A stretch of DNA of 64,000 nucleotides, from NCBI RefSeq assembly GCF_046105845.1, contig NZ_CP151004.1; one strand, given 5' to 3'. This stretch comes from Escherichia coli (GTDB lineage: Bacteria; Pseudomonadota; Gammaproteobacteria; Enterobacterales; Enterobacteriaceae). The stretch's first letter is position 1. Each line of letters begins with the position of its first letter. Below the pieces are notes generated by a model. That model saw only the letters and a program-made list of their open reading frames with translations. It searched no databases and was not told the origin of the DNA. Positions 4,775-7,507 of the stretch are shown one piece after another. A program made the translations under genes and the position numbers.

Positions 4775-4807
4775 ATAAAAAAGCCGCCAGGTTTGACCCC
4801 GGCGGCT
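4775..4807 (-). terminator. Rho-independent terminator downstream of ahpF
   Basis: Stem agccgcc / ggcggct with a 12-nt loop; on the minus strand it is followed by a U-tract (plus-strand ataaaaa). A second structured GC-rich hairpin plus T-run around 4732..4771 probably terminates uspG on the plus strand. Confidence 0.6.
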
Positions 4808-4836: not shown

Positions 4837-6402
4837 TTATGCTGTTTTGGTGCGAATCAGGTAGTCAAAAGCACTCAGAGAGGCTTTGGCACCTTCGCCA
4901 GTGGCGATGATGATCTGCTTGTACGGAACCGTTGTACAGTCACCCGCTGCGAACACGCCTTTCACGTTGGTTTCGCATTTCGCATCAATGATAATCTCGC
5001 CCATGCGGTTACGTTCGACTGCGCCTTCGAGCCAGTTGGTGTTCGGCAGCAGACCAATCTGCACGAAAATACCGGCCAGTTCGATGTTGTGAATATCGCC
5101 GCTGACACGATCTCGATATTCCAGACCAATGACTTTGCTGCCGTCGCCTTTCACTTCCGTAGTTTGCGCATTCAGAATAATGTCGACGTTTTTCAGGCTG
5201 CGCAGTTTGTCCTGCAGAACCTGGTCGGCTTTCATTTCTGGCGCAAATTCCAGCAGCGTTACGTGCTCAACGATACCCGCCAGGTCGATTGCCGCTTCCA
5301 CGCCGGAGTTACCGCCGCCGATAACCGCTACGCGTTTGCCTTTAAACAGCGGGCCGTCGCAGTGCGGGCAGTAGGTCACGCCTTTGGTGCGATACTGATC
5401 TTCGCCCGGAACGTTCATGTTGCGCCATTTTGCACCGGTCGCCACGATAATGCTGCGTGCTTTCAGTACCGCGCCAGAAGCTGTTTCAATCTGATGCAGA
5501 CCACCTTCAACCGCTGCCGGGATCAGTTTGCTGGCGCTCTGGCTGTCGATCACATCAACGTCGTATTCATCAACGTGAACTTTCAGCGCTCCTGCCAGCT
5601 TCTGCCCTTCAGTCTTCGGTACAGAAATGTAGTTTTCGATATCAACGGTATCGAGGATCTGACCACCAAAACGTTCGCCCATCAGACCAGTACGGATGCC
5701 TTTACGTGCGGAGTAAATTGCTGCCGCTGCACCCGCTGGGCCGGAACCGACGATTAATACGTCATAAGCATCACGCTTGTTCAGCTCTTCTGCCGCACGT
5801 TTTTCCGCGCCAGTATCAATTTTGGCGACGATTTCAGTCAACGTCATGCGACCCTGACCAAACTCTTTCCCGTTTACGAATACTGCCGGAACGCCCATCA
5901 CGTTGCGATCGGTGATTTCGTTCTGGAAGGTACCTCCGTCAATTGCAGTGTGCTTGATGCGCGGGTTCAGTACGCTCATCAGGTTCAGCGCCTGCACCAC
6001 ATCCGGGCAGTTGTGGCAAGAGAGCGAGTAATAGGTTTCGAATTCAAAATCACCGTCAATATGGCGAATCTGCTCCAGCAGAGACTGCGCTTCTTTCGAC
6101 GGATGACCACCGGTCCACAACAACGCCAGTACCAGCGAGGTAAACTCGTGGCCCAGCGGGGAACCTGCAAAACGTGGCCCCTGGTTAGAACCTGGGTTAG
6201 TGATCAGGAAAGACGGCTTACGCACCGGCAAGCTGTTATCTTCTTTAAAGGTGACTTTGTCTGACAGTTCTGCGATTTCAGCCAACAGTTCCTTGATTTC
6301 TGCCGATTTAGCGCTGTCATCCAGCGTGGCAATTAACTCAACAGGCTTGGTCAATTTCTCAAGGTAAGCCTTGAGTTGAGTTTTCATATTTGTGTCGAGC
6401 AT
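4837..6402 (-). CDS. ahpF: Alkyl hydroperoxide reductase subunit F
   Basis: ORF 4837..6432; start trimmed to MLDTNMKTQ to give 521 aa; two CxxC motifs are visible in the translation. Confidence 0.93.
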
Positions 6403-6572
6403 GTTTATCTCCTGGGCTTTAAACATCATCATGCAAGCGGCCTCTGCGGCTACCTGGATGCAGCTTGCATCATGGTGCGGGGAAGAAAATCGGGTGCCGC
6501 AGCACCCGAAGAATTAGGTGAATTTCCGAAGTATTTCGCGCCGGAGTTGGTAGCGCGAAAGACGAAGGAAAT

Positions 6573-7136
6573 TTAGATTTTACCAACCAGGTCCAGAGAC
6601 GGAGCCAGAGTTGCTTCACCTTCTTTCCATTTAGCCGGGCAAACTTCACCTGGGTGAGAAGCTACGTACTGTGCTGCTTTGATTTTACGCAGCAGGTCAG
6701 ACGCGTCACGGCCAATGCCTTCAGCGGTAACTTCGATTGCCTGGATGATACCCTGCGGGTCAACAACGAAGGTCGCACGGTCAGCCAGACCTTCATCTTC
6801 ACGCATGTTGTCGAAGTTACGGGTCAGGGCGCCAGTCGGGTCGCCGATCATCGCATATTTGATTTTAGCGATGGTTTCAGAGCTGCTGTGCCATGCTTTG
6901 TGGGTGAAATGAGTATCGGTAGATACTGCGTATACGTCTACGCCCAGTTTCTGCAGTTCTTCGTAGTGGTCAGCAACGTCACCCAGTTCGGTCGGGCATA
7001 CGAAAGTAAAGTCAGCCGGGTAGAAGAAGAAGACGCTCCAGCGGCCTTCGGTATCTTTTTCGGTGATTTCGATGAATTCGCCGTTTTTGAATGCCTGGTT
7101 TTTAAAAGGTTTAATTTTGGTGTTAATCAAGGACAT
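6573..7136 (-). CDS. ahpC: Alkyl hydroperoxide reductase subunit C (peroxiredoxin)
   Basis: 187 aa ORF recognised as AhpC; followed by ahpF. Confidence 0.95.
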
Positions 7137-7507
7137 CTATACTTCCTCCGTGTTTTCGATGAGATGTAAGGTAACCAATTTTTGCCGATTCGGCTAATGC
7201 GTTTCCATTATCAAATCGATAAGTTTTACCTTACAACCTTCGTAAGACAACTTTGTGAACTTTGCACCGCCAGCGGCGATAAAAAGTAAAATGGCCCCCT
7301 TTCCAGGTGACCGTGTAATCTGAACTACCCTTTGGTATCTTCAGCGCCTGCCTGCAGGCTGAGGTGTTGCCCTTACAAATGCAACAACGACATGGATTAC
7401 AACACCCTCATAAACAAAGGGCAATCACCTGATCTAAGCTCTTACCTATGACAGTGATAGGTTATGCCTTTTACTCGACTTTTGCACTGACTGAAAAGGA
7501 CAAATTA
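7137..7507. promoter_or_regulatory. Divergent ahpC / dsbG control region (OxyR-regulated promoters expected here)
   Basis: Intergenic region between the divergently oriented ahpC and dsbG; OxyR control of ahpCF and dsbG is established knowledge. The exact operator was not mapped from the sequence. Confidence 0.4.

Follow-up and report, generated by a model that had tools for sequence, protein, structure and literature searches.

Three hairpins between ahpC and ahpF in Escherichia coli: a probable leaky terminator, an RNase III site, and an ERIC remnant

Leaky intrinsic terminators within operons set unequal expression of the genes, with a highly expressed gene before the terminator and a less expressed one after it; they consist of a G+C-rich stem with an immediate U-tract, and the 3' ends of transcripts are found in vivo in the U-tract. 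The REP-type 3' stabilizers, of which malE-malF is an example between operon genes, are multi-copy, non-terminating elements. In these, a stable hairpin shields the abundant upstream cistron from 3' exonucleases (Higgins et al. 1982, cited in PMC3184786). Intercistronic hairpins can also be cleaved by RNase III. Gordon, Cameron and Pfleger (2017, PMC5371410) reported a cleavage site at position 639695 in the ahpC-ahpF spacer of E. coli K-12, alongside sites at pflB and yajQ, and verified it with purified enzyme and 5' RACE. The half-life of ahpC mRNA was about 14 min in the wild type versus about 6 min in the rnc mutant, and that of ahpF was unchanged; the authors proposed that after cleavage the ahpC mRNA carries a protective hairpin at its 3' end. 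Hairpins of another origin are the ERIC (or IRU) elements, which are MITE-like imperfect palindromes of about 127 bp (Sharples and Lloyd 1990, Hulton et al. 1991, and Wilson and Sharp 2006, cited in PMC3184786) and which, when transcribed, reportedly influence how stable the upstream mRNA is (De Gregorio et al. 2005, as summarized in PMC3184786).

In the present study, we analyzed the spacer between the peroxide-defense genes ahpC and ahpF in a stretch of 64,000 nucleotides from E. coli (contig NZ_CP151004.1), hereafter called the window; positions are those of the window unless otherwise indicated. The RNA of the spacer was predicted to fold into three separate hairpins, HP1, HP2, and HP3. 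HP2 resembles the leaky intra-operon terminators in its stem, its immediate U-tract, its in vivo 3' ends, and its place between a highly expressed and a less expressed gene; it differs in that the U-tract is interrupted and the published 3' end is classed as 'orphan'. With the REP-type stabilizers HP2 has in common a stable hairpin behind an abundant upstream cistron, but it is single-copy and followed by a U-tract. HP3 is at the same locus as the RNase III site of Gordon et al. (2017) and has the same sequence as in K-12, so that the long imperfect stem, the in vitro cleavage, and the stabilized upstream message all apply and nothing differs. HP1 keeps the two terminal arms of an ERIC. The K-12 allele is a full element with both ERIC primer sites, whereas the copy in the window is a 51-nt remnant without the 74-nt core and without both primer sites. 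The features of the locus are as follows.

6573..7136, minus strand: ahpC coding sequence, 187 amino acids, the upstream gene of the operon (open reading frame, and annotation in identical E. coli records)
6403-6572, transcribed from the minus strand: ahpC-ahpF spacer, 170 nt
6522..6572, minus strand: HP1, an internally deleted ERIC/IRU repeat ('mini-ERIC') (fold and repeat comparison)
6490..6509, minus strand: HP2, an 8-bp G+C-rich stem with a UGCG loop, UCGGGUGC-UGCG-GCACCCGA (fold and conservation)
6481..6489, minus strand: U-tract UUUUCUUCC of the putative HP2 terminator (K-12 Term-seq 3' ends at 6487 and 6485)
6423..6478, minus strand: HP3, a long imperfect hairpin, RNase III processing site (fold and published K-12 site)
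6409..6413, minus strand: Shine-Dalgarno sequence AGGAG of ahpF, unpaired in the centroid structure and sequestered by no predicted hairpin
4837..6402, minus strand: ahpF coding sequence, with the annotated start MLDTNMK at 6402 (open reading frame and RefSeq annotation)
4782..4807, minus strand: terminator-like hairpin after ahpF, a 10-bp stem followed by UUUUUAUGG (consensus scan)

The transcript of the spacer folded with -59.2 kcal/mol, compared with -44.0 ± 4.0 kcal/mol for dinucleotide shuffles (z = -3.8; 0 of 200 shuffles were as good). The initial annotation, made from the window sequence and its open reading frames, had described a 170-nt spacer with two inverted repeats; the length and both repeats were confirmed, and a third hairpin, HP1 (6572-6522), had been missed. 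The small repeat, given as 6493..6508 with a perfect 6-bp stem, is present but lies one nucleotide away (on the plus strand, gggtgc at 6492-6497, cgca at 6498-6501, and gcaccc at 6502-6507), and its perfect stem has 8 bp. The longer repeat, gcaagc (6433-6438) and gcttgc (6463-6468), was recovered within 21-nt arms (6424-6444 and 6457-6477) that are 81% complementary.

A stretch of 301 nt around the spacer was present in 5,422 of 5,426 complete E. coli genomes, in many of them with 100% identity. The K-12 spacer is 244 nt long (639509-639752 of NC_000913.3), and from HP2 to the ATG of ahpF its sequence is identical to that of the window. Two of the 5,432 matches to the spacer were on plasmids, and a few genomes had two copies, which suggests that ahpCF is occasionally duplicated or mobilized. 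In one genome of strain DH5alpha (NZ_CP045741.1; positions 640-740 of our locus L003), a deletion begins in the 3' arm of HP2 and reaches the first part of ahpF, and ahpF is annotated from another start; this could be a real mutation of the laboratory strain or an assembly error.

No promoter was found within the spacer by a consensus scan. Open reading frames on either strand of the spacer were rejected as coding, since they are broken by the 74-nt indel in K-12 and the frame is not conserved; the short ones lacked a Shine-Dalgarno sequence, and neither their length nor their frame was conserved. The program that called open reading frames extended ahpF by 10 codons to position 6432, through three in-frame ATGs in the 3' arm of HP3 (6403-6432). 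We rejected this start: in several genera the ATGs further upstream (spacing of 29-31 nt) are not in frame with ahpF, and RefSeq annotates MLDT. As other genera do not keep the extended frame, we retain the annotated start at 6402.

HP2 has a stem of 8 bp, six of which are G-C pairs, and a 4-nt loop (6490-6497 and 6502-6509). Its predicted free energy is -16.6 kcal/mol (z = -5.7), and none of 200 shuffles was as good. The tract UUUUCUUCC lies directly 3' of the stem, with six U in its first eight nucleotides, of which only four are consecutive. The consensus scan scored HP2 as terminator-like, a result that is weak alone because seven such sites occurred in 2.9 kb, compared with 3.9 ± 1.9 expected. 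The decisive evidence comes from published Term-seq data of strain MG1655 (Adams et al. 2021, PMC7815308; supplementary file 1, NC_000913.3 coordinates). A 3' end in the spacer was listed at 639668 in LB at OD 0.4 (17,950 average reads), at 639670 in LB at OD 2.0 (7,690 average reads), and at 639668 in M63 glucose (8,697 average reads); the authors classed all three as 'orphan' and gave no Rho score. We placed the 61-mers of that table (50 nt upstream and 10 nt downstream of the end) on NC_000913.3, and the ends fell within the tract, one on its third U and the other on the C that follows the fourth. Positions 639668 and 639670 are 6487 and 6485 in the window, within the U-tract and 3-5 nt past the HP2 stem. 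Thus, a G+C-rich stem-loop, an adjoining U-tract, and in vivo 3' ends in the U-tract, by which an intrinsic terminator is recognized, come together at HP2.

The same table (Adams et al. 2021) lists no curated 3' end just after ahpF (6413xx), which fits the view that many more transcripts end after ahpC than after ahpF, and the Rho table (file 2) contains no Rho-dependent region in the spacer. As the U-tract is interrupted, the terminator is presumably only partly efficient. We infer that HP2 is a constitutive, leaky intrinsic terminator that also serves as a 3' protective hairpin, and that the 3' ends arise mainly from termination and not from trimming. The proposal of a partial terminator in the initial annotation thus gained support for the small hairpin, from its anatomy as well as from K-12 3' ends in the U-tract under three conditions; Term-seq had been named there as the check, and the outcome of a spacer free of 3' ends did not occur. 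A literature search for ahpC and ahpF with Term-seq found nothing, and nothing relevant came from searches for Northern blots or stem-loops described for ahpCF of E. coli. The 'orphan' 3' end of Adams et al. (2021) can now be assigned to the ahpC terminator hairpin HP2, which is a modest addition of the present analysis.

Upstream of the ahpC promoter, positions 7281-7374 (minus strand) matched the enterobacterial sRNA family STnc70 of Rfam with 44.1 bits (gathering threshold, 40). Another 'orphan' 3' end of K-12 Term-seq, 638796, was found in three conditions 149 nt upstream of ahpC; it corresponds to 7285 in the window, the end of the STnc70 match, which suggests that a short transcript of the same strand has its end shortly before ahpC.

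For the comparative analysis, 80 ahpC loci were fetched, and ahpF adjoins ahpC in 70 of them (none from E. coli). The spacers of these 70 loci were 68-410 nt long, none being shorter than 68 nt. A hairpin with a perfect stem and a T-run was found in at least 45 of the 70 spacers (Proteobacteria), compared with 15% of shuffled spacers; the scan undercounts such hairpins, as the extension of a stem by A-U pairs consumes the U-tract (for example, in locus L008). Among 19 Enterobacterales, 98% of the cells in the aligned HP2 stem were paired, compared with 18-55% in slid controls, in an alignment that was built by hand around the stem and therefore biases the counts toward structure. Compensatory changes occurred in three of the eight pairs (A-U/U-A; C-G to U-A; G-C to A-U or C-G). 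This alignment omits two divergent hairpins (the MAG bran_bin.7 and Klebsiella sp. BIGb0407), which forced gaps. RNAalifold on the MAFFT alignment recovered HP3 only; HP2 was lost because its variable loop lengths misaligned the arms, and thus the arms were extracted by hand.

The U-tract was conserved together with the stem. Across the 19 species, 67% of the first eight nucleotides after the HP2 stem were U, compared with a spacer background of 24%, and the tail was U-rich (at least four U in eight) in 18 of them. The tail in Leclercia, UAUCCCCU, has three U in eight, and with this poor U-tract HP2 may act there only as a stabilizer. Pantoea, Erwinia, Providencia, Brenneria, and Mangrovibacter have kept HP2 and the U-tract and are all without HP3; in the first four of these, HP2 and a tract of 6-8 U lie about 20 nt before the ATG of ahpF, and there is no HP1 either. 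From these comparative data, including the genera without HP1 and HP3, we consider HP2 to be the ancestral conserved core of the spacer across Enterobacterales.

HP3 (6478-6423) folded with -23.0 kcal/mol (z = -2.6; 2 of 200 shuffles were as good) and contains about 20 base pairs, interrupted by bulges, in its 56 nt. It ends about 10 nt before the Shine-Dalgarno sequence of ahpF (6413-6409), and it is followed by no U-tract. The cleavage site 639695 falls on the C of GCAAGCUG-C-AUCC; this base belongs to the upper part of the 5' arm of HP3 and corresponds to about 6460 in the window. Thus, the extended stem of roughly two helical turns seen in the fold coincides with a site at which both rnc-dependent cleavage and cleavage by the purified enzyme are documented (Gordon et al. 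2017, PMC5371410). The suggestion that the long repeat too may be a partial terminator or attenuator did not hold, as it has no U-tract and coincides with a verified RNase III site that stabilizes ahpC mRNA.

HP3 was found only in the group of Escherichia, Citrobacter, Enterobacter, Leclercia, and Superficieibacter, with a similar fold in 13 orthologues. Between genera, the 5' and 3' arms were 92% and 97% identical, respectively, compared with 71% (ahpC) and 66% (ahpF) at third codon positions. The 3' arm with the bases that follow it, CUUGCAUGAUGAUGUUU (6423-6445, minus strand), lies just 5' of the ribosome-binding site of ahpF and was 97% identical in 12 genus-level taxa. RNAalifold found no compensatory pairs in HP3, and the few changes in the 5' arm break pairs; the comparative data thus show a constraint on the sequence and do not prove pairing, and the support for HP3 comes from the experiments in K-12. 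Beyond Gordon et al. (2017), what is new, from sequence comparison, is that HP3 is restricted to this group and that its 3' arm is 97% identical across genera without compensatory change. This conservation would seem stricter than an RNase III stem needs, and the arm could have a second function, for example as a binding site for an sRNA or a protein that controls the translation of ahpF; we regard such a function as quite unlikely.

HP1 adjoins the stop codon of ahpC. Its predicted free energy is -18.3 kcal/mol (z = -4.4), with an inner stem UUUCGCGCU/GGCGCGAAA at 6560-6552 and 6542-6534 and an outer stem at 6572-6567 and 6527-6522. The K-12 spacer has 74 additional nucleotides inside HP1, which carry the ERIC core and both sites of a primer pair, which we take to be the standard ERIC-PCR primers, with 1-2 mismatches each; the two primer sequences are widely used together as a pair in the literature, in 233 papers. 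By blastn, the first 127 nt of the K-12 spacer were repetitive, with a median of 8 places in a genome and a maximum of 15. Independent copies of this element, between rpsB and tsf, downstream of ybiT, and between ardC and mobH, have terminal arms in common with HP1 of the window. The central core (the ERIC1R/ERIC2 primer region) had no match in the window at up to three mismatches, and the 51-nt remnant itself is single-copy. Thus, terminal inverted arms are present in the window, the multi-copy intergenic distribution belongs to the K-12 element, and the central core is absent. As the terminal arms are shared with the independent copies and the 74-nt core is gone, HP1 is an internally deleted ERIC. 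Its alleles in complete E. coli genomes were distributed as follows.

Full ERIC (as in K-12), 244-nt spacer: 1,763 genomes
Mini-ERIC, identical or near-identical to the window, 170-nt spacer: 1,434 genomes
Few terminal ERIC bases left (including O157:H7), 128-nt spacer: 1,112 genomes
Unclassified: about 1,100 genomes

One unclassified genome that we examined, uk_P46212, had an allele of 170 nt in which HP1 carries two SNPs. For the HP1 variant of locus L006, megablast gave no match in any E. coli genome. In other genera, the site of HP1 was occupied by full ERICs, a different short hairpin of ERIC ends, REP-like elements (in two genera, loci L013 and L016), or nothing. As HP1 varies or is nearly absent both within E. 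coli and among genera, it is dispensable. By analogy with the reported effects of ERICs in other transcripts, an effect of HP1 on the stability of ahpC mRNA is possible and would be at most modulating; that the three common ERIC alleles cause the stability of ahpC mRNA and the level of AhpC to differ heritably between E. coli lineages we think improbable, to the same degree as the second function of the HP3 arm. A polymorphic ERIC remnant with three common E. coli alleles next to the ahpC stop codon is a modest addition to what is known of the locus.

The ardC-mobH copy (NZ_OZ547209.1, locus L088, positions 401-501) lies between ardC and a MobH relaxase gene in an apparent integrated conjugative element, and 31 ERIC places were on plasmids in a distant search; these observations suggest that ERICs are also carried on mobile DNA. 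In Superficieibacter electus (locus L019, positions 2065-2190), the ERIC differs from that of the K-12 ahpC-ahpF spacer at few positions, as judged by eye, and the rest of the spacer looks more diverged from K-12 than the ERIC does. This hints at transfer or homogenization rather than simple vertical descent.

Three other explanations of the spacer have to be weighed. HP2 could be only a barrier to 3' exonucleases: the full ahpCF mRNA would always be made, RNase III would cut HP3, and PNPase or RNase II would trim the product back to HP2, so that the 3' ends in the U-tract would be processing products and the ratio would be set purely by differential mRNA decay. Such a barrier agrees with the increase in the half-life of ahpC mRNA from about 6 to about 14 min upon cleavage of HP3 and with the protective 3' hairpin proposed by the authors (PMC5371410); moreover, Term-seq cannot separate termination from exonucleolytic trimming back to HP2, and in Leclercia the U-tract is poor. 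A block to exonucleases does not need a U-rich tail, however, and this tail is conserved in 18 of 19 species; HP2 has also been kept with a long run of 6-8 U in genera that lack HP3 altogether, and it is within the U-tract, 3-5 nt past the stem, that the 3' ends are found. A barrier alone is therefore, in our judgment, an unlikely account. The hairpins could also be mere by-products of the insertion of ERIC- or REP-type mobile repeats, with no role in expression. This agrees with the origin of HP1, which is an ERIC remnant that varies freely within E. coli, and REP-like or full ERIC elements are present at the same position in other genera, but it does not extend to HP2 and HP3. These two are single-copy, at one place per genome in a megablast search with the spacer, do not vary among the examined E. 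coli alleles except for SNPs in the apical loop, are conserved across genera, and have experimental RNA phenotypes. As an account of the whole spacer, it is scarcely credible.

The remaining alternative is a regulated attenuator or a riboswitch-like element, in which an alternative pairing, a leader peptide, a ligand, or a protein decides on termination at HP2, for example under oxidative stress; attenuation had also been proposed in the initial annotation. The spacer is indeed highly structured, and the loop and 3' arm of HP2 have 7-nt complementarity to the apex of HP3. This partner at the HP3 apex is not conserved in other genera, however, and as it lies downstream of the HP2 terminator, it is not yet made at the time of the termination decision. 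Upstream of HP2 the spacer contains nothing but the ERIC remnant, and this cannot serve as an antiterminator on which regulation depends, as the full, mini, and nearly absent alleles are all common in E. coli. The spacer had no match to an Rfam family at E values up to 10 and no conserved short open reading frame or leader peptide, its reading frames being without Shine-Dalgarno sequences, and the 3' ends were present in all three growth conditions. Thus, upstream of the terminator we found no conserved antiterminator or other competing structure, no leader peptide, and no known aptamer, and termination regulated in this way is very unlikely.

We therefore favor, with a probability of about 80%, the explanation that the three independent hairpins uncouple the mRNA levels of ahpC and ahpF, with more message for ahpC than for ahpF, and thereby lead to an excess of AhpC. 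In this proposed mechanism, RNA polymerase coming from the OxyR-controlled ahpC promoter would meet HP2, and part of it would terminate in the U-tract at about 6487-6485. The product would be a short ahpC-only mRNA with its 3' end protected by HP2, and the remaining polymerase would read through into ahpF. RNase III would cut HP3 in the read-through RNA into an ahpC part and an ahpF part, as in the K-12 experiments, which were made on a sequence identical to that of the window from HP2 to the ahpF ATG. From the ahpC part, 3' exonucleases could trim back to HP2, after which it would be stable; the ahpF part would have a single-stranded leader with a free ribosome-binding site. HP1, as a decayed and dispensable mobile repeat, would at most modulate mRNA stability. 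AhpC greatly exceeds AhpF, as seen in proteomics and ribosome profiling. The size of the read-through fraction, and that the spacer sets the ratio of AhpC to AhpF, we infer.

The system is an ordinary one whose main parts have been published before; it is a textbook-like case of a leaky terminator together with RNase III processing and involves no new principle. The cell needs far more AhpC than AhpF, the reductase of AhpC, and the spacer is likely the device by which this excess is obtained from a single promoter.
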